From Myxococcota bacterium (GTDB lineage Bacteria; Myxococcota_A; UBA796), in assembly GCA_036127535.1 (NCBI GenBank), contig JAYYRF010000434.1:1-36277 (forward strand): a stretch of 36,277 nucleotides of DNA. Reading direction: 5' to 3'. How positions within the stretch are numbered: position 1 is the first letter of the stretch; every line of letters starts with the position of its first letter. The translations under genes and the position numbers were made by a program. This document shows positions 23,549-31,751 of the stretch, piece after piece. The notes under the pieces are model-generated. The model had not been told where the DNA came from. It made no database searches and was given only the letters and a program-made list of their open reading frames with translations.

Positions 23549-25204
23549 TTATTCGTCTCGCCAACGTCGACTCCTCTCTACCTCTTCTTTGTATGCTTCG
23601 ATCTCTTCTTGTTTTTTTGCTTCGTCCCAATTGAGAAGAGCCGCCATTTCTTCTGCGACACGATCCAAACAATTCAGCCCCTGCTCAGTCTCTCGGAAGA
23701 ATACTTGTGTCCTTCGTATTAAAACATCGCGAATCGTCTTTGCGAGCTCTTTCTCTACCGCATATTTGACCTGCGCCATAATTTCGGGTCGCTCGGGGTT
23801 CAACCGCTCTTGCAGTGATGCATCTCGCTTGGCCATTTCACCGACATCTTTACCGCGCACACCATAGGTTTCGGCGAGTAACTGAATGGTGTCTGATTTC
23901 AAAACCTCTCCCGCATCTGTTTGAATTTGATGCATAATATCCGCTAAACCGTTCTCTGGCCAACCGATCGCACCGGGTAGTGCCTCTTGCGCAGTATTGG
24001 CGTTTCGAATGTTACCAGGCAAACGGTCAATCGCACGGAGATACTCTATCGCCTTATCGACGACTTCCGCTCCCATCTTTCGATACGTCGTCAGCTTTCC
24101 GCCCGCGCTTGTGATTAACCCGTCAGACTCAATTTTTAAAACATGCTCACGCGAAACCGCAGATTCGTCATCGCTATTTTCGTCTGCGACCCAGGGTCGA
24201 ACACCTGCCCAAGTCGATATCACATCCCCCTCTTCCAAATGTGCAGTGGGGAAATAGTGGTTGCTGACGTTGATTAAGTAGCGAACATCTTCGCCAGAAG
24301 CGGCGACGTCACCCGGATCAGATTGATAATCGGTATCCGTTGTTCCAATGTAGGTTCGATCTCCCCACGGAATCGCAAACAATACGCGACCGTCCTCGGG
24401 ATGAAAACAAACAATTGCATTGTTGAGAGAAAGTTTTTCCGTCGGAACCACGATGTGAATGCCCTTTGTTGGTCGCAAACGCTTTTTGATCTCTTCCCCC
24501 TTCAATCCGCGAAGACGATCAGACCACGGCCCTGTCGCATTCACCACAGCACGCGCGCGAATTTCTTTCTCTTCCCCGGTGAAGCGATCCAAAACACGAA
24601 CGCCGGCAATCCGATTTTGTTCGTTTTTCACAAAGCCCAAAACCTTGACATACGTCGCGACGGTTGCACCGTGTGCAACGGCATCCAAAGCAGATTCAAG
24701 GGTCAAACGCGCATCGTCCGTGGCACAGTCGTAATATTGAGGTGCCCCTTTCAAATCTTCTTGGCGCAACGAGGGCTCTTGTTTTTTTAATTTTTTCTTG
24801 GAAAGGCTTTTGTGCATTTTGGGAGATCGAAAAAGAGACAATCCATCGTACAACCACATTCCTATATTGATTTCGAGAAGGCTTCGACGAGAATCGCTAA
24901 AGACCGGGAAGAGAAAGCCCTGTGCACGAACGAGATGGGGTGCAATTTTCATTAGAATCCGACGCTCGGACACCGACTCAAAAACCAAGGCAAACTCTGC
25001 GTGTTCCAGGTAACGGAGTCCTCCATGCACGAGTTTTGACGAACGAGAGCTCGTACCAAAAGCGAGATCGTTCATATCGACCATCAACGTTTTCAAACCT
25101 CTCATCGCGGCATCTCTGGCAGCACCAGCCCCGGTAATTCCACCGCCAATAATCAAAACGTCGTACTCTTGCTCTGACAAACCTTTTCTATCTTCCTGCA
25201 TCAT
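23549..25204 (-). CDS. glpD: FAD-dependent glycerol-3-phosphate dehydrogenase
   Basis: YDVLIIGGGITGAGAARDAAMRGL dinucleotide fold, GTSSRSSKLVHGGLRY and GGKLTTYR. The ATG at 25204 is preceded by AGGAGAACACGGA. Confidence 0.9.
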   Translation of the reverse strand: MMQEDRKGLSEQEYDVLIIGGGITGAGAARDAAMRGLKTLMVDMNDLAFGTSSRSSKLVHGGLRYLEHAEFALVFESVSERRILMKIAPHLVRAQGFLFPVFSDSRRSLLEINIGMWLYDGLSLFRSPKMHKSLSKKKLKKQEPSLRQEDLKGAPQYYDCATDDARLTLESALDAVAHGATVATYVKVLGFVKNEQNRIAGVRVLDRFTGEEKEIRARAVVNATGPWSDRLRGLKGEEIKKRLRPTKGIHIVVPTEKLSLNNAIVCFHPEDGRVLFAIPWGDRTYIGTTDTDYQSDPGDVAASGEDVRYLINVSNHYFPTAHLEEGDVISTWAGVRPWVADENSDDESAVSREHVLKIESDGLITSAGGKLTTYRKMGAEVVDKAIEYLRAIDRLPGNIRNANTAQEALPGAIGWPENGLADIMHQIQTDAGEVLKSDTIQLLAETYGVRGKDVGEMAKRDASLQERLNPERPEIMAQVKYAVEKELAKTIRDVLIRRTQVFFRETEQGLNCLDRVAEEMAALLNWDEAKKQEEIEAYKEEVERSRRWRDE

Positions 25205-25273
25205 TCCGTGTTCTCCTGATTTATGATTCTTTTTACACGAATCAATAGCAGACTCAAAGTCACGGATCATATT

Positions 25274-25282
25274 TGTTACAAT
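25274..25282 (+). promoter_or_regulatory. Extended -10 promoter (TG-T-TACAAT) for the crotonase gene
   Basis: TGTTACAAT ends 26 nt upstream of the ATG at 25309. An AGGAGA SD lies at 25298-25303. Confidence 0.4.
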
Positions 25283-25308
25283 AGTAAAGAAAAAAATAGG
25301 AGAAAAGC

Positions 25309-26142
25309 ATGCTTCCCACCGAAATTCAAATTTTAAATCCAAGCCTGTCGACAGATCAGAGAACCCTAACCTTGCTGCTCGATCACGGTCACGTCAACGA
25401 GATGGGCTCGGAGCAGTTGAAAGCATGGGAATATTTAAGCCAATTCCTGCAAAAAGGAGAAATCCGTACTCTGATCACAACATCGCAAAAAAAGAGCAAA
25501 CGGGGTAAATCCATCTTCATCGCCGGCGCCAATGTAAAAGAGCGCGCTGGTTGGCATGAGGATCAAGTTTGCGCGCACGTTCGTTGGCAAAGACGTATAC
25601 TGAAATCACTTCGTTCTTGTCCGGTTTTTCACATTTGTATCGTCGATGGAATGGCATTGGGATGGGGTTTGGAGTTTCTGCTAACCGCAGATTATCGCCT
25701 TACGACCCCTTTATCTAACTTTGGACTTCCCGAGACCAGTCTCGGAATTATCCCAGGCGCCGGTGGTACTTCCGATCTGTGGCAAGAGGTCGGTATTGCC
25801 CACGCACTCCGTTTGGGAATGACAGGAGAAAGAATCGATGCGACGGAAGCGATTCGTATCGGACTGTGTCAGGAAATTTTTTCCGAATGGTCTCTGGCAA
25901 TGGAGCGCGCACAAAGACTTGCGCGGGCGGTCTCGAAGAATTCTCCCACCGCCGTCTCCTCTTTTAAATCTGCGCTGCTCGGATCCATTGGTTCTGAAAT
26001 ATCGCATCGAGAATCATTGGAAACCCTCGCGTATGAGCATTGTGTCCATACAGGAGAAGCCGCAATCGGTCGCGCGCACTTCGGCTCAAAGGAGCCCACC
26101 CCGTGGGGAACACTTCATATTTTCGAATCTGATTCGACATAA
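25309..26142 (+). CDS. Enoyl-CoA hydratase/isomerase (crotonase) family protein
   Basis: ALGWGLEFLLTADYRL and FGLPETSLGIIPGAGGTS contain both canonical catalytic Glu positions. Confidence 0.85.
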   Translation: MLPTEIQILNPSLSTDQRTLTLLLDHGHVNEMGSEQLKAWEYLSQFLQKGEIRTLITTSQKKSKRGKSIFIAGANVKERAGWHEDQVCAHVRWQRRILKSLRSCPVFHICIVDGMALGWGLEFLLTADYRLTTPLSNFGLPETSLGIIPGAGGTSDLWQEVGIAHALRLGMTGERIDATEAIRIGLCQEIFSEWSLAMERAQRLARAVSKNSPTAVSSFKSALLGSIGSEISHRESLETLAYEHCVHTGEAAIGRAHFGSKEPTPWGTLHIFESDST

Positions 26143-26245: not shown

Positions 26246-27313
26246 ATGAAAATTCTATCCATATCCAAAGCACATCCTGAGAATTACTACACACAAGAAG
26301 TTCTTCTCAGCGAGTTTAAAAAAGTTTGGGCGCAAAAACACCATAACCCCAGTCGCGTTGAGCGACTGCACAAAGCCGTTAGTGTGGGAGGTCGGTATCT
26401 CGCACTCAAAAGAGAAGAGTACTACGAGATAGAAAATTTTACGCAATCCAACGATCACTTCATTCGTGTTGCCACCGAGGTCGGAGAAAAAGCAATCCGA
26501 GCGGCATTGAACAAAGCCAATTTGAACGCTTCCGACGTAGACGCCCTGTTTTTTGTAAGTGTGACCGGTGTATCTACACCTTCGATCGACGCCCGTATGA
26601 TGAACCGCCTCCCTTTTCGTAAAGACACAAAGCGAATACCCATCTTTGGTCTTGGATGTGTTGCCGGCGCGGCCGGACTCGCGCGCGTGCACGACTACTT
26701 GCGAGCCTACCCCGATCAAGTAGCCATTCTTCTCTCCGTCGAACTTTGCTCTCTAACGCTCCAAAGAGAAGATTTATCCATTGCGAATCTTATATCCAGC
26801 GGCCTTTTCGGCGATGGTGGTGCCTGTATTGTGGCGGTTGGAGACGAACGAGCGAAGACAATTTCCTCTTCAGAAGAAAGACCGTCTGTTTATGCTACAC
26901 AAAGCAGATTCTATCCGGATACAGAAGATGTTATGGGGTGGTCTATCGGAGAAAAAGGCTTTCGTGTTATCCTCCAGGCTCGCGTTCCGCAGTTGGCGAG
27001 GGACTTCATTCGAGGTGATGTAGACGAATTTTTAGCTGCGCACCAATTGACGAGGGCCGATATCAAATGGTGGGTTTGTCATACCGGTGGTCCCAAGGTC
27101 ATCGATGCATTCCGCGATGCGCTCGAAATCCCAGAAGAAGCCGTATCTTTGACGAGAAAATCGCTTCGGTCTGTCGGCAATCTGTCCAGCGCATCGGTCT
27201 TATTTGTTCTCGCGGATACGATACGAGAACGACCTACCCAAAAAGGTGATCTCGGTCTTCTCATGGCCATGGGTCCCGGTTTTTGTTGTGAAATGGTACT
27301 CTTGCGATGGTAG
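26246..27313 (+). CDS. Type III polyketide synthase (chalcone/stilbene synthase superfamily, bacterial alkylresorcinol/alkylpyrone-synthase-like)
   Basis: The catalytic triad is recognisable: Cys138 in FGLGCVAG (TGT at 26657-26659), His279 in WVCHTGGPKV and Asn312 in SVGNLSSASV. The length is 355 aa. Confidence 0.92.
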   Translation: MKILSISKAHPENYYTQEVLLSEFKKVWAQKHHNPSRVERLHKAVSVGGRYLALKREEYYEIENFTQSNDHFIRVATEVGEKAIRAALNKANLNASDVDALFFVSVTGVSTPSIDARMMNRLPFRKDTKRIPIFGLGCVAGAAGLARVHDYLRAYPDQVAILLSVELCSLTLQREDLSIANLISSGLFGDGGACIVAVGDERAKTISSSEERPSVYATQSRFYPDTEDVMGWSIGEKGFRVILQARVPQLARDFIRGDVDEFLAAHQLTRADIKWWVCHTGGPKVIDAFRDALEIPEEAVSLTRKSLRSVGNLSSASVLFVLADTIRERPTQKGDLGLLMAMGPGFCCEMVLLRW

Positions 27314-27843
27314 GACTCTACCTATATAGCGGCTTTATCGCGGCTACAGCTATCGAACGATTGATCGAAGTACGTGTTTCTCTGCGAAATGCAAAGTGGA
27401 GCTTTGAGCGCGGTGGCATAGAGTACGGAAAGGGACATTACCCTTTTATGGTTATACTGCACACCGGATTTTTATTTGCCTGCGTACTGGAAGCGTGGTT
27501 GCTGCATCGAACGTTTATGCCCATGCTGGGGTACCCGATGTTGATCATAGCCATCCTATGTCAAGCCCTACGATGGTGGATCATACAAACCCTCGGGGAG
27601 CAATGGAATACCCGGGTAATTATCGTTCCCAATCTACCGCGGGTGACCAAAGGTCCTTATCGGTGGTTTTCTCATCCCAATTACATCGTCGTCGCATTGG
27701 AAGGCGTTGCGCTTCCTTTAATCTACAACGCGTATTTCACCGCCATTGGATTCACCTTGTTGAACCTTCTCTTGATGCTCGTACGCATCCGCTGTGAAAA
27801 CCAAGCCTTAGAATCCCTTTCTCAAGCCCCACAGGAATCTTAA
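27307..27843 (+). CDS. Isoprenylcysteine carboxyl methyltransferase (ICMT)-like integral membrane methyltransferase
   Basis: Multiple TM segments and the ICMT-type block VTKGPYRWFSHPNYIVVALEGVALP. The ATG overlaps the PKS end by 7 nt. Confidence 0.85.
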   Translation: MVGLYLYSGFIAATAIERLIEVRVSLRNAKWSFERGGIEYGKGHYPFMVILHTGFLFACVLEAWLLHRTFMPMLGYPMLIIAILCQALRWWIIQTLGEQWNTRVIIVPNLPRVTKGPYRWFSHPNYIVVALEGVALPLIYNAYFTAIGFTLLNLLLMLVRIRCENQALESLSQAPQES

Positions 27844-28085
27844 TGTCCCCATCGAATGAAATCTTCGCGGTCATAACAGGTATTATCAAGGAAGAGCTTG
27901 GATGGAAAGAGTCTCTCTCTCCCCAACATCCCGTCACAGAACTCGATTCGATGCAGCAGTTATCGTTGATTGTCGCACTGGAAGATCATTTTGAAATTTG
28001 TTTGGATCCAGAGGATGAGAAACAAGTCGAGACCCTAAACGATCTCGTCTCTCTCATTCAAGCAAAATTAAACAGTAAGAGTTGA
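27843..28085 (+). CDS. Stand-alone acyl carrier protein
   Basis: 80 aa and acidic, with the phosphopantetheine attachment motif LDSM (Ser36). The ATG overlaps the upstream TAA by 1 nt. Confidence 0.85.
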   Translation: MSPSNEIFAVITGIIKEELGWKESLSPQHPVTELDSMQQLSLIVALEDHFEICLDPEDEKQVETLNDLVSLIQAKLNSKS

Positions 28086-28086
28086 T

Positions 28087-29796
28087 ATGACCACGCTAAT
28101 TCAGAAACTCAAAGAAGCCTGTACGACAGAGTCCGCGATAGAAGGTTTTACCTTCGTCGATCGCAAAGAGAACGCTACGCACTACCCCTTCGCTGCCGTA
28201 TGGAAACGTACCCGGAAAGCCGCGGCATTCTTGCAAAGCATGGGAATCCAAAAAGGGGACTCCGTTGCCATTTTATTACCGACCTGCATCGAGTTTATGG
28301 ATATATTTTTGGGCGCGCAATTCATTGGTGCTATACCGGTTCCTCTCTATCCGCCGATGCGTCTCGGAAAGCTCGATGAGTACTTCGACAAAACCGCCAG
28401 TATGCTCGAAGCGGCGAATGTGAAGCTGATCGTTACGAATCCACGCATCAAACGCATCTTGGGTCAGCTGGTTCAACGCTATGCGCCGCGCCATGGAATT
28501 ATCATCGCATCGGATCTTCAAAAGGGGGAGAATCCAACTCCCGTGTCGCTTTCTCCCGACGATATTGCCATGGCACAGTTCTCTTCTGGAACAACGCAAA
28601 ATCCAAAGCCGGTTGCCTTAACCCATCGACAAACCCTCTCGAACGTCGTCGCGATTTACCAAACCTTTCCCGATAGTCTCCATCACAAAACAGGCTGTTC
28701 TTGGCTACCCCTTTATCATGACATGGGGCTGATTGGCTGTATCTTTCCCGCAATTTCCATTCCCGGTCGGATCGTCCTGATCTCTCCAGAGATCTTCTTA
28801 GCCAAGCCTTCTATTTGGCTTCGTACCATCTCAAAGTACAAAGCCTTTATATCTCCCGCTCCTAATTTCGCATATTCTCTTTGTACGGAAAGAATCAAAG
28901 AATCAGAATTAGACGGTGTAGATTTATCGTGTTGGAAAATGGCGCTCAACGGAGCGGAGCCCGTCGCGCCAGAACACCTTCGTAAATTTATCGAACGATT
29001 TCAAAAATATGGCTTTGCGAAAGAGGCGATTACACCCGTTTACGGACTGGCAGAGGCATCGTTGGCACTCACATTCTCTCGTTCAGATGCCCTTTTTACA
29101 TCGCACCATTTCGACCGAGACCAACTCGCCCAAGGAACAGCCGTTCAAGGAAGAACCAAACATTCTGTCGAACTGGCCAGTGTAGGAAAGCCATTGAGCG
29201 GGTTCTTCATCGAAATCCGAGACCAAAGGAATCGCGCCTTACCCAATGGTAAAGTGGGTACCATTTGGGCCAAAGGCCCATCTCTCACCAGTGGATATCT
29301 CAACAATCTCCCTTCCCCTATACTCAACGGATGGCTCAATACCGGGGATATTGGATTCTTCTTCGATGAAGAGCTGTTTATTTCTGGCCGTGAAAAAGAT
29401 GTTCTTGTCATTCGAGGACAAAACCACAGTCCCTACGATATCGAACACGCCGTCGACTCGGTTTCTGGTGTGCGAACCGGATGCTCGGTTGCCGTATCCC
29501 ACATATCGGAAGAGGGAGAGCGCCTGTTTGTTTTTGTAGAGTACCGAACGAGCTATCCCGCGATGGCGGAGGACTGTAAAAAGGCCATCGTGGCCAAAAC
29601 GGGCATTTGTCCGGATCTGGTTCTCCTATTGGAAGGAGGAACTCTACCTCGTACTTCCAGCGGAAAATTGCGTAGAAATCAAACACTTCAGAAATATTTG
29701 GCCAATCAATTGATCCCCCCCAAGAAAGTAAATTCGCTTTTGATCGCAGGTGCGTTAGCCAAAAGTGCACTCGGGTATTTGCGCGCAAGGAGATAA
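28087..29796 (+). CDS. Fatty acyl-AMP ligase (FAAL)-type adenylate-forming enzyme
   Basis: QFSSGTTQNPKPVALTH, YGLAEASLA, TGDIGFF...FISGREKDVLVIRGQNHSPYDIE and LPRTSSGKLRR. It starts 1 nt after the ACP stop. Assigning FAAL rather than acyl-CoA ligase rests on these FAAL-style motifs and the adjacent ACP. Confidence 0.85.
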   Translation: MTTLIQKLKEACTTESAIEGFTFVDRKENATHYPFAAVWKRTRKAAAFLQSMGIQKGDSVAILLPTCIEFMDIFLGAQFIGAIPVPLYPPMRLGKLDEYFDKTASMLEAANVKLIVTNPRIKRILGQLVQRYAPRHGIIIASDLQKGENPTPVSLSPDDIAMAQFSSGTTQNPKPVALTHRQTLSNVVAIYQTFPDSLHHKTGCSWLPLYHDMGLIGCIFPAISIPGRIVLISPEIFLAKPSIWLRTISKYKAFISPAPNFAYSLCTERIKESELDGVDLSCWKMALNGAEPVAPEHLRKFIERFQKYGFAKEAITPVYGLAEASLALTFSRSDALFTSHHFDRDQLAQGTAVQGRTKHSVELASVGKPLSGFFIEIRDQRNRALPNGKVGTIWAKGPSLTSGYLNNLPSPILNGWLNTGDIGFFFDEELFISGREKDVLVIRGQNHSPYDIEHAVDSVSGVRTGCSVAVSHISEEGERLFVFVEYRTSYPAMAEDCKKAIVAKTGICPDLVLLLEGGTLPRTSSGKLRRNQTLQKYLANQLIPPKKVNSLLIAGALAKSALGYLRARR

Positions 29797-29798
29797 AC

Positions 29799-30836
29799 AT
29801 GCGAGACCTCGTAATTGTCGGCGGTGGTCCAAGTGGTCTGTCGGCAGCCATACTGGCTGCTCAAAACGGTCTTAGCGTATCTATCATCGAACAGAAACGG
29901 GGAGTCATCGATAAAGCATGTGGCGAGGGTCTCATGCCCGCCGCGGTGACCGAACTCAACAGCATGGGTGTCTTCCCCGAACAAAGCCACATATTCAAAG
30001 GCATTCGTTATATAGAGGGCACCCAAGCCGCTGAAGGAACCTTTCGACAAGGCGTAGGGCTCGGTGTTCGTCGCCTCGCATTACACGAAGCTCTTCAAAA
30101 GCGCGCAGAAGAACTGGGCGTTGAACGGATTCACGAGCGTGTAAGCCAGTTCTCACAAACGGAAACGCATGTCAATGTCAATGACTACCAAGCGCGGTAT
30201 CTCTTCGCCGCAGATGGTTTGTATTCCTCTATCCGTAAAAAGCTCAACCTAAACCTTCCACACAAAAGACCTTTGCGCTTGGGACTCCGAAGACACTATC
30301 GGCAAAAACCGTGGTCTCCCTTTGTCGAAGTCTACTGGTCCCCCTTTGCCGAAGCCTACGTTACCCCTGTAGCGGACGATCTCATTGGTGTTGCAATTCT
30401 GTACTATAAAGACAAGGCACCACCATCCCAAAACAAATACGAAGAACTCTTGGCTCGCTTTCCCACGCTACAAGAGAAACTCCATACACCGTGTACCAGT
30501 CTTCGAGGGTCGGGTCCCTTTGAACAACGGGTAAAAAGTCGTGTATCTGGTCGTATCTTGCTTGTAGGAGACGCAGCCGGCTATCTGGATCCGCTCACCG
30601 GAGAAGGCATTCGTCTCGGACTCGACTCTGCAAAAGCAGCTGTACAGTGTATTGTAGCCGATCAGCCGGAAAGATATGATAAAGCCTGGAAGAAAGTCTC
30701 ACGCCGATACTGGTGGATGACAGACGGCCTCTTGAAACTCCGCGCCGTCCCTCCCCTGCGAAAACTCATGATTCCCGTTCTACAAAGAGCTCCGTGGCTC
30801 TTTCGCTCCATCGTATCCACCCTTGCAGAAGCTTAA
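29799..30836 (+). CDS. FAD-dependent oxidoreductase/monooxygenase (geranylgeranyl-reductase-like family)
   Basis: VIVGGGPSGLSAAILAA, DKACGEGL and LVGDAAGYLDPLTGEGI. It starts 2 nt after the FAAL stop. Confidence 0.85.
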   Translation: MRDLVIVGGGPSGLSAAILAAQNGLSVSIIEQKRGVIDKACGEGLMPAAVTELNSMGVFPEQSHIFKGIRYIEGTQAAEGTFRQGVGLGVRRLALHEALQKRAEELGVERIHERVSQFSQTETHVNVNDYQARYLFAADGLYSSIRKKLNLNLPHKRPLRLGLRRHYRQKPWSPFVEVYWSPFAEAYVTPVADDLIGVAILYYKDKAPPSQNKYEELLARFPTLQEKLHTPCTSLRGSGPFEQRVKSRVSGRILLVGDAAGYLDPLTGEGIRLGLDSAKAAVQCIVADQPERYDKAWKKVSRRYWWMTDGLLKLRAVPPLRKLMIPVLQRAPWLFRSIVSTLAEA

Positions 30837-30905
30837 GACCCAGATCGTCTTTCGAGATGCACATACTACCCAAAAGAGATAAGACATCTCTTTGGAGTGT
30901 CGAGT

Positions 30906-31751
30906 ATGTCTATCTTTCATCCAGGTCTACTAGAAGACCGTGTGGCCATCGTAACCGGGGGCGGAAGCGGTATTGGTGCATCCATATCTTACCTTTTCTC
31001 TCAACTCGGCGCCCGCGTCATCATTGCCTCCCGCAAAGAAGAGCGCATTCAAAAAGCAGCAGCCGGCCTGAGTGCCCTCACCCAAAATGAGGTACAAGGA
31101 TTGGTCTGTGATATACGCAATCGAGAAAGCGTACAATCACTCGTCAAAACCGTCATGCAAAAACATGGAAAAATCGATATCCTTGTCAATAATGGCGGAG
31201 GCCAATTTATGTCTCCGGCAGAACACATTCGTCCAAAGGGCTGGGACTCTGTAATATCGACCAATTTGACGGGTACATGGAACATGTGCCAAGCGGTTGC
31301 CAAAGCCCATATGCTCAAACATAGAGGAAAAATCATTAACATCACCATGCTGACGGATCGTGGTTTTCCCGGAATGAGTCATTCGTGTGCTTCTCGTGCT
31401 GGTGTAGAGGGCATGACAAAAAGCCTCGCCGTCGAATGGGCAACCAAAGGGATCTCCATCAACTGTATTCAGCCAGGGATTATTGCGTCCAACGGGATGC
31501 GAAACTATCCTGGTGGCGAAGCAATCGCCCGACAGGTGCGATCTGAGATACCGATGAAACGCTTGGGACATTGCGATGAAGTAGCGAACTTGGTTGCATT
31601 CCTCGCTTCTCCAGCGGGAAATTATATTACGGGTCAAATTTGGGCGATCGATGGTGGACGAAATCTTTGGGGTAAGACATGGCCATTACCCGACCCGAAA
31701 AATATGGAACCGGTACAAATCCAAGATTGGCCGTGGGAACAAGAAGATTAA
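30906..31751 (+). CDS. Short-chain dehydrogenase/reductase, trans-2-enoyl-CoA reductase (PECR)/dienoyl-CoA-reductase-like
   Basis: TGGGSGIG cofactor motif and NNGGGQF, which is typical of PECR-like SDRs. The ATG at 30906 lies 8 nt after GGAG. The GTG at 30897 overlaps that SD. Confidence 0.85.
   Translation: MSIFHPGLLEDRVAIVTGGGSGIGASISYLFSQLGARVIIASRKEERIQKAAAGLSALTQNEVQGLVCDIRNRESVQSLVKTVMQKHGKIDILVNNGGGQFMSPAEHIRPKGWDSVISTNLTGTWNMCQAVAKAHMLKHRGKIINITMLTDRGFPGMSHSCASRAGVEGMTKSLAVEWATKGISINCIQPGIIASNGMRNYPGGEAIARQVRSEIPMKRLGHCDEVANLVAFLASPAGNYITGQIWAIDGGRNLWGKTWPLPDPKNMEPVQIQDWPWEQED

Follow-up and report, generated by a model that had tools for sequence, protein, structure and literature searches.

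Among known systems, ftpABCDE of Myxococcus xanthus (Hayashi et al. 2011, ChemBioChem 12:2166; PMID 21815236; details here follow citing papers) has the same five gene families in the same order as the locus analysed below. According to the relevant passage of PMC5707447, the fatty acyl-AMP ligase (FAAL) FtpD loads the acyl carrier protein (ACP) FtpC, and the type III polyketide synthase (PKS) FtpA takes the resulting acyl-ACP; the MxFAAL-MxACP pair has been found to work in vitro (PMC8460268). FtpA figures as an alkylresorcylic acid producer in the account given by PMC6836626, and alkylquinones arise by oxidation of SrsA and FtpA products (PMC10896814). An acidobacterial type III PKS cluster ("Mor1") from an uncultured bacterium has the M. 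xanthus ftp organisation with 47-58% identity, and no product of it has been detected (PMC5006271); an ftp architecture beyond myxobacteria has thus already been published. Several other systems share part of this machinery. Streptomyces griseus srsABC and Mycobacterium smegmatis pkqABC, the latter leading to polyketide quinones (PMC9927152), have the trio of PKS, ICMT-like methyltransferase and flavoprotein, but they are without a dedicated FAAL and ACP and draw their starter from acyl-CoA or fatty-acid synthesis. In Bacillus subtilis bpsAB, a type III PKS is likewise followed by an ICMT-family membrane methyltransferase and BpsA accepts acyl-ACP (PMC5707447), whereas FAAL, dedicated ACP and flavoprotein are all lacking from this two-gene system and its products are mainly alkylpyrones. 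The cyanobacterial hidABC and a planctomycetal three-gene operon combine a methyltransferase, an oxidoreductase and an alkylresorcinol-forming type III PKS, but in the reversed order MT-oxidoreductase-PKS and without FAAL and ACP (PMC10896814). Azotobacter vinelandii arsABCD is similar in that a carrier protein, and not CoA, hands the long acyl starter to its type III PKS; it differs in that the starter comes from a dedicated type I FAS (ArsAD) and in the lack of methyltransferase and flavoprotein. The phenolic lipid of A. vinelandii is located in the envelope.

The window, i.e., the whole 36,277-nt stretch of DNA that has been analysed, carries five coupled same-strand genes at 26246-30836 (Table 1), whose junctions are, in order along the operon, a 7-nt overlap, a 1-nt overlap, a 1-nt gap and a 2-nt gap. 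These sizes, taken from the open reading frame listing, are identical to those given in an earlier sequence-only reading, and the FAAL/ACP precedent from M. xanthus which that reading had mentioned has turned out to be ftpABCDE; loci of Myxococcus, Corallococcus and Archangium have the same gene order. What has been observed directly is the gene content with its order and coupling, the catalytic and FAAL-defining residues, the clade to which the PKS belongs and the conservation of synteny. The five genes probably constitute an operon of the ftpABCDE type, with a membrane phenolic lipid of the alkylresorcinol or alkylquinone type as its product. The three-gene srsABC/pkqABC type does not apply, as ACP and FAAL sit between methyltransferase and flavoprotein; the PKS, methyltransferase and flavoprotein are 41-54% identical to their counterparts in actinobacterial loci. 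A promoter and terminator scan of the locus has given counts equal to the shuffled-sequence level.

Table 1. Genes of the operon and its flanks, with positions in the window and the matches on which the assignments rest.
Feature	Position	Strand	Evidence and remarks
GlpD-type glycerol-3-phosphate dehydrogenase	23549-25342	-	NF008899 392 bits (cut-off 360); divergent from crotonase
Crotonase-fold enoyl-CoA hydratase/isomerase	25309-26142	+	PF00378 90 bits; 103 nt upstream of PKS
Type III PKS	26246-27313	+	355 aa; ORF listing, Pfam Chal_sti_synt_N/C and ACP_syn_III_C
ICMT-family integral-membrane methyltransferase, FtpB/SrsB/BpsB-like	27307-27843	+	178 aa; PF04140 ICMT 91 bits, PF04191 PEMT 31 bits
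Stand-alone ACP, FtpC-like	27843-28085	+	80 aa; PF00550 PP-binding 27.9 bits (cut-off 20.8)
Fatty acyl-AMP ligase (FAAL), FtpD-like	28087-29796	+	569 aa; AMP-binding 200 bits
FAD-dependent oxidoreductase, FtpE/SrsC/PkqC-like, presumed ring hydroxylase	29799-30836	+	345 aa; PF01494 FAD_binding_3 62 bits
PECR-like SDR (trans-2-enoyl-CoA reductase-like)	30897-31751	+	Human peroxisomal 1YXM, 262 bits, E 5e-77; 60 nt downstream of flavoprotein

The operon arrangement is far beyond chance, because the same order has been found again in dozens of genomes. It is identical, PKS-ICMT-ACP-FAAL-FAD, in loci of Myxococcus, Corallococcus, Pyxidicoccus and Archangium. Since the M. xanthus ftp genes were not among the compared loci, a congeneric species has been used in their place, and identities between the window and the Myxococcus eversor locus L054 are moderate (PKS 56%, methyltransferase 48%, ACP 37%, FAAL 47%, flavoprotein 40%); apart from this 37-56% range, the difference from ftpABCDE lies in the host lineage. 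None of the GlpD, crotonase and PECR-like neighbours has been seen at the myxococcal loci compared. Among 57 related loci for which 4.8 kb or more of downstream sequence is available, the full order has been scored in 22, and 10 more are identical except that the ACP went undetected by tblastn, so that the layout has been seen in ~32 of the 57, spanning Myxococcota, Acidobacteriota and others. Within the family of the host, the core order is kept in 12 of 12 genomes, three of these contigs ending inside the flavoprotein gene or shortly behind it. The gene set, already characterised in M. xanthus, is present across many bacterial phyla, and the window holds an ordinary further copy of it. With this locus, the wide range of FAAL/ACP-fed phenolic-lipid operons extends to a further uncultured lineage, presumably in a phylum other than that of the "Mor1" cluster.

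The catalytic residues Cys138, His279 and Asn312 of the PKS, as named in the sequence-only reading, have been verified by script and do not vary in any of the 86 aligned homologues. The best match among solved structures is Mycobacterium tuberculosis Pks11 (341 bits, E 5e-101), and CylI, THNS and PKS18 score 203, 169 and 97 bits. In the tree, the enzyme falls inside a long-chain clade of Pks11, srs-like and ftp-like sequences, and a branch with an SH-aLRT of 98 sets this clade apart from CylI, THNS and the DpgA-type PKS encoded elsewhere in the genome. The reading as a long-chain acyl-primed enzyme is supported by both the Pks11 score and the tree. The cut-off of the DpgA equivalog model NF042429 of NCBIfam is 425 bits; the window PKS reaches 201 bits, and the second type III PKS of the genome (contig C743), which has served as an internal control, reaches 495 bits; a DpgA-, THNS- or CylI-type PKS is ruled out by the low DpgA score together with the tree separation. 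Clade membership leaves the ring type unproven, because Pks11 and BpsA make alkylpyrones too. Trp232 of the PKS aligns with Pks11 Trp230, at the position of ArsB Trp281, and Trp is found there in 83 of 86 sequences; it is also shared with the srs/pkq systems. Trp at this position is said to dictate resorcinol formation, and the pyrone-forming ArsC has Gly (PMC5916927, PMC9927152). We consider it unlikely that the same machinery yields another product, with the PKS lactonising to tri- or tetraketide alkylpyrones, the methyltransferase making alkylpyrone methyl ethers and the flavoprotein acting on a different substrate. Such a course would agree with the closest solved structure, which is named "alpha-pyrone synthesis polyketide synthase-like Pks11", with the aliphatic pyrone-type polyketides of B. 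subtilis BpsA/BpsB (Nakano 2009, as cited in PMC5916927) and with pyrones obtained from related enzymes in vitro (PMC7064976), but Trp232 itself points to resorcinols, the operon includes a flavoprotein as do the quinone-forming srs, pkq and ftp operons and unlike the two-gene bps, and FtpA is reported, in the account cited above, to form alkylresorcylic acid (PMC6836626). The window PKS is most likely an FtpA/SrsA/Pks11-like alkylresorcylic acid or alkylresorcinol synthase, as judged from its closest relatives and the Trp232 position.

Among NCBIfam models, the ligase matches PRK09192 best (fatty acyl-AMP ligase, 411 bits, under the 600-bit cut-off). Its leading matches among solved structures are without exception FAALs (7R7E, EcFAAL 3PBK, 3KXW, FadD32, FadD23 and FadD28, E 1e-81 to 1e-43), whereas CoA-ligase structures match only from E 1e-32 onward. 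Using the definitions of FAAL features from PMC8460268, we have located in an alignment with E. coli FadD a FAAL-specific insertion of 25 aa (His340-Ala364, nt 29104-29178) and, around Ser233-Pro241, the FAAL-specific helix region, which is 3 aa longer than in FadD; both the insertion and the longer helix segment are common to the ligase and 8 FtpD orthologues. Trp206, Met213 and Phe261, which are bulky residues in the CoA pocket, correspond to W224, M231 and F279 of EcFAAL, and Pro208 corresponds to EcFAAL Pro226, a proline conserved in the alternative phosphopantetheine pocket. The FAAL assignment made from the sequence alone has thereby been substantiated by insertion, helix and pocket residues, and this full set of features rules out a CoA ligase. 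The phosphopantetheine site of the ACP is Ser36 in LDSM (codon 27948-27950), and the motif [LIVMF]DS[LMIV] recurs in 51 of 52 orthologous ACP matches; the ACP also matches NCBIfam ACP models, all of them under the model cut-offs. The gene for the ICMT-like methyltransferase directly follows the PKS gene in most related loci, with 42-66% identity.

The flavoprotein contains the motifs GGGPSG, DG (in ADGLYS) and GDAAG and is 36-61% identical to the flavoproteins at the same position in ftp-like and srs-like loci; no close match has been found among solved structures. Its role as a ring hydroxylase is presumed from its position and its homology to the flavoproteins of srs-like operons. The best curated model is that of the geranylgeranyl reductase family (TIGR02032, 140 bits), one of the few PDB matches is a digeranylgeranylglycerophospholipid reductase, and a homologous oxidoreductase of Planctomycetota has been co-expressed without detectable activity (PMC10896814). 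The enzyme could accordingly be imagined as a reductase that saturates an alkyl or alkenyl side chain, in which case the end product would be a methylated alkylresorcinol in place of a quinone. We regard this as quite unlikely, as the TIGR02032 score remains below the cut-off of 158.8, the DG motif is typical of class A flavoprotein monooxygenases, and the protein shares 41-49% identity with the third-position flavoproteins of actinobacterial PKS-ICMT-FAD operons, a type reported to yield benzoquinones (PMC9927152, PMC10896814). A flavin-dependent halogenase has been rejected, the WxWxIP motif being absent from the translation and halogenase PDB matches being weak and partial.

We infer the chemical steps, chain length, extender choice and end product from homologues, and we agree with the sequence-only reading that the letters by themselves give neither the product nor its role. 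The FAAL would adenylate a free long-chain fatty acid and transfer it to the phosphopantetheine on Ser36 of the dedicated ACP, and not to CoA. The type III PKS would then extend the acyl-ACP starter with three malonyl (possibly methylmalonyl) units and close the ring by aldol condensation, so that an alkylresorcylic acid or alkylresorcinol may be formed, with pyrones as potential side products. The ICMT-like membrane methyltransferase is predicted to O-methylate the ring, probably with decarboxylation in an SrsB-like manner; methylation by SrsB (PMC3294851) is accompanied by decarboxylation according to papers that cite this work. Finally, the flavoprotein would hydroxylate the ring to give a hydroquinone, which could oxidise to an alkyl-methoxy-benzoquinone.

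The operon is flanked by genes that recur among its close relatives. Every same-family locus with enough sequence has a GlpD(-)/crotonase(+) pair upstream of the PKS operon, and the crotonase gene has been located upstream of the PKS in 11 of 12 same-family loci, the twelfth contig stopping short of that position. A PECR-like SDR gene is present downstream in the closest relative (L083, 7 nt past the flavoprotein gene), in L107 and, behind a TerC gene, in L109/L110. A seven-gene unit, in which crotonase and PECR-like reductase would tailor the acyl chain, for example by hydrating, isomerising or saturating an enoyl thioester, and lead to a product unlike the ftp lipids, could build on this recurrence, on the shared strand, on short intergenic distances (103 nt and 60 nt) in which no convincing terminator has been found, and on the score to human PECR (262 bits), but it is very improbable in view of the divergent YceI gene (3 same-family loci) or 1.4-1.6 kb insert (others) between crotonase and PKS, of a downstream reductase that is missing in 6 of 11 family loci with enough sequence and stands behind TerC in 2 more, of the compared loci outside the family, where neither gene accompanies the operon, and of the CoA thioesters used by both enzyme families, which the FAAL/ACP route bypasses. 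The YceI gene or insert before the PKS in relatives also weakens the case for the crotonase as an obligatory operon member; it is probably a conserved neighbour within the family and not a part of the pathway. The PECR-like SDR is a variable accessory neighbour, and both genes are lineage-restricted and non-core.

GlpD is a quinone-reducing glycerol-3-phosphate dehydrogenase, and PkQ has an electron-acceptor role in mycobacteria and Streptomyces spores. It is conceivable, if quite improbable, that the product of the operon is a polyketide quinone which accepts electrons in the membrane, either as a dedicated acceptor or as an alternate one, and is functionally linked with GlpD and lipid catabolism. 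The flanking CoA-dependent enzymes would in this case shape the fatty-acid pool of the FAAL. A polyketide quinone as the sole respiratory quinone of the lineage is ruled out by MenB, which scores above cut-off in 11 of 13 family genomes; it appears as a contig-edge fragment in a twelfth, and the genome of the window itself, which is 76% complete, is the only one to lack it. MqnC of the futalosine pathway has not been found in the family genomes. Across the taxonomic order of the host, the PKS of the operon has been found in 34 of 41 genomes, a pattern that speaks for a housekeeping-like function in the envelope or in respiration and against an occasional secondary metabolite. Being compact and tightly coupled, the 4.6-kb operon is a convenient expression target, although it opens no new question. 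The host belongs to an uncultured order and has a GC content of ~48%.

The region 26246-30836 is a real operon of a kind that has already been characterised and is widespread. The five coupled genes described by the sequence-only reading have been reproduced exactly by the ORF listing, the first two junctions being overlaps of 7 and 1 nt and the last two gaps of 1 and 2 nt, and Pfam and NCBIfam profile searches have assigned each ORF to a family (table below). The same reading had named Cys138, His279 and Asn312 of the type III PKS and an LDSM motif in the 80-aa ACP. All three PKS residues have been found and are invariant in 86/86 aligned homologues, and the motif, which holds Ser36, is kept in 51 of 52 orthologous matches. 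The FAAL/ACP-fed type III PKS operon of Myxococcus xanthus that it named as a precedent has been confirmed as well and is published (Hayashi et al. 2011, ChemBioChem 12:2166). In vitro reconstitution of the MxFAAL-MxACP pair has been reported (PMC8460268), the PKS FtpA of the M. xanthus ftpABCDE operon has been termed 'alkylresorcylic acid-generating' (PMC6836626), and the same organisation, at 47-58% identity, has been described for Mor1 from an uncultured acidobacterium (PMC5006271).

Features of the operon, its flanks and related loci (L112, L115 and L116, same-family loci; C743 = L082, another contig of the same genome)
Feature	Location	Strand	Remarks
Crotonase	25309-26142		upstream of PKS operon, paired with divergent glpD
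Type III PKS	26246-27313	+	355 aa; Pfam Chal_sti_synt_N/C
ICMT-family membrane methyltransferase	27307-27843	+	178 aa; ICMT 91 bits
ACP	27843-28085	+	80 aa; PP-binding above cut-off
Adenylate-forming ligase	28087-29796	+	569 aa; best curated models fatty acyl-AMP ligases, PRK09192 411 bits
Flavoprotein	29799-30836	+	345 aa; FAD_binding_3; geranylgeranyl-reductase superfamily 140 bits, below cut-off
PECR-like reductase	30897-31751		downstream of flavoprotein; human peroxisomal trans-2-enoyl-CoA reductase 262 bits
YceI-like genes	L112:4191-4784, L115:3772-4350, L116:2737-3342	-	PF04264, 56-71 bits; secreted; just upstream of PKS
Second type III PKS	C743 = L082:862-1920		DpgA equivalog 495 bits, cut-off 425
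DpgB-like crotonase	C743 = L082:1922-2653		130 bits vs 140
225-aa protein, no family	C743 = L082:2653-3330		

FAALs account for all of the top solved structures for the ligase (7R7E, E. coli FAAL 3PBK, Legionella 3KXW, FadD32, FadD23 and FadD28; E 1e-81 to 1e-43), whereas CoA ligases start only at E 1e-32. Relative to E. coli FadD, 25 residues (His340-Ala364 in the window protein) are inserted between the YGLAEA and SVGKP motifs of this ligase and of eight FtpD orthologues, at the FAAL-specific insertion site, and in all of them the segment at the FAAL-specific helix is 3 residues longer. The alignment with EcFAAL runs without gaps across the insertion and helix regions, and Trp206, Met213, Phe261 and Pro208 align with EcFAAL W224, M231, F279 and P226. 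The CoA pocket has been described as blocked by the first three of these, and P226 belongs to the alternative pocket for phosphopantetheine, where this proline is conserved (PMC8460268). The proposed FAAL type, as opposed to a CoA ligase lacking the insertion, has thus held. Beyond its Pfam domains the ligase carries a tail of ~27 residues (residues 543-569, 29713-29796; PPKKVNSLLIAGALAKSALGYLRARR), which is kept in 7/8 aligned FtpD orthologues, is absent from E. coli FadD and may form an amphipathic membrane-binding or docking helix.

The assignment of the PKS to the long-chain acyl-primed enzymes has likewise been sustained. It scores 341 bits against M. tuberculosis Pks11, compared with 203 for CylI, 169 for THNS and 97 for PKS18, and a maximum-likelihood tree built from 86 sequences places it inside a clade of Pks11, actinobacterial srs-like and ftp-like loci, which a branch with an SH-aLRT of 98 parts from CylI, THNS and the genome's own DpgA-type enzyme. 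Its Trp232 aligns with Pks11 Trp230 at the ArsB-281 position, which has been reported to dictate that a resorcinol and not a pyrone is formed (PMC5916927, PMC9927152).

We infer every chemical step for 26246-30836 from homologues, the sequence-level preconditions being present. The FAAL would convert a long-chain fatty acid to the acyl-AMP and load holo-ACP, and the acyl-ACP would prime the PKS, which would carry out three extensions and then an aldol ring closure that yields an alkylresorcylic acid or alkylresorcinol. The ICMT-like enzyme would then O-methylate the ring, a reaction that for SrsB goes with decarboxylation (Nakano 2012, cited in PMC5916927), and the flavoprotein would hydroxylate it to a hydroquinone, to be oxidised to the benzoquinone, as described for the srs/pkq route (PMC9927152). 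The flavoprotein is the weakest link of this pathway. Because it has no close match among solved structures and the curated model that fits it best, though with a score under the cut-off, is that of the geranylgeranyl-reductase superfamily, it could conceivably act as a side-chain reductase rather than as the ring hydroxylase proposed here.

Relatives of the window PKS have been collected as 80 loci from a scan with one genome per species, against which the window proteins were run by tblastn. The PKS-ICMT-ACP-FAAL-FAD order of the window has been found in all Myxococcus, Corallococcus, Pyxidicoccus, Citreicoccus and Archangium loci, with identities to Myxococcus eversor of 56% (PKS), 48% (ICMT), 37% (ACP), 47% (FAAL) and 40% (flavoprotein). 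In 57 loci the sequence extends 4.8 kb or more downstream; of these, the full five-gene set has been scored in 22, a further 10 differ only by a small ACP missed by tblastn at a right-sized gap, and 8 are of the three-gene srs/pkq type. The five-gene form occurs in Myxococcota, Acidobacteriota and MAGs labelled Pseudomonadota. Of 41 genomes in the window's taxonomic order, 34 carry the PKS, and the core gene order is kept in 12/12 same-family genomes examined, in three of them on contigs that break off inside the flavoprotein gene or shortly behind it. Because no fewer than 8-15 gains or losses are required to explain the layout with a FAAL on the 86-sequence PKS tree (see also loci L001 and L015), the FAAL/ACP pair is a mobile add-on to a PKS-MT(-FAD) core. 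The closest named PKS relative, in an Opitutia MAG (L001, Verrucomicrobiota; 68% identity), has PKS and ICMT only, followed by 7.5 kb of unrelated sequence. Three further MAG loci (L005 = G025, L012 = G019, L020 = G012) are placed by GTDB in the window's order or family and titled 'uncultured Enterobacterales bacterium' in GenBank, a label that is implausible given their gene content.

Wherever a same-family locus is long enough to show it (L083, L107-L116), the divergent glpD/crotonase pair (23549-26142 in the window) lies upstream of the operon, keeping this position despite genes inserted between pair and PKS; in same-order genomes outside the family it has not been seen, except for one crotonase. 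The PECR-like reductase begins 7 nt past the flavoprotein gene in the closest relative (PKS identity 75%) and lies downstream in 5 of 11 family loci with enough sequence, in two of these behind a TerC gene. A divergent YceI-like lipid-binding gene stands between crotonase and PKS in three same-family genomes, and a 1.4-1.6 kb insert parts the two in other family genomes; tblastn over related loci has found neither crotonase nor reductase with the operon outside the family. Because of these intervening sequences, the patchiness of the reductase and the absence of both genes outside the family, we have treated them as probable neighbours rather than operon parts; that they modify the acyl chain is a minor possibility. 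The window has no YceI gene upstream of the PKS; its genome carries three elsewhere. In L112 (9372-10412, +) and L115 (8966-10003, +), the flavoprotein gene is followed directly, on the same strand, by the gene for a hydrophobic protein of ~345 aa that matches no Pfam family, in the place of the window's PECR-like reductase.

GlpD reduces quinones. A polyketide quinone as the sole quinone of the lineage is ruled out, since menaquinone is not missing (MenB above cut-off in 11/13 family genomes). An auxiliary electron-carrier role, as reported for polyketide quinones in mycobacteria and Streptomyces spores (PMC9927152), is possible but unsupported.

A DpgA identity of the window PKS, from which the tree also separates it, is rejected at 201 bits for the equivalog model against a cut-off of 425. 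On C743, a contig too short to show DpgC, DpgD or any NRPS context, the same genome carries a DpgA-type PKS, an internal control for the window PKS, which is followed there by a DpgB-like crotonase; the C743 genes look like a Dpg-type (3,5-dihydroxyphenylacetyl-CoA) module from outside the actinomycetes.
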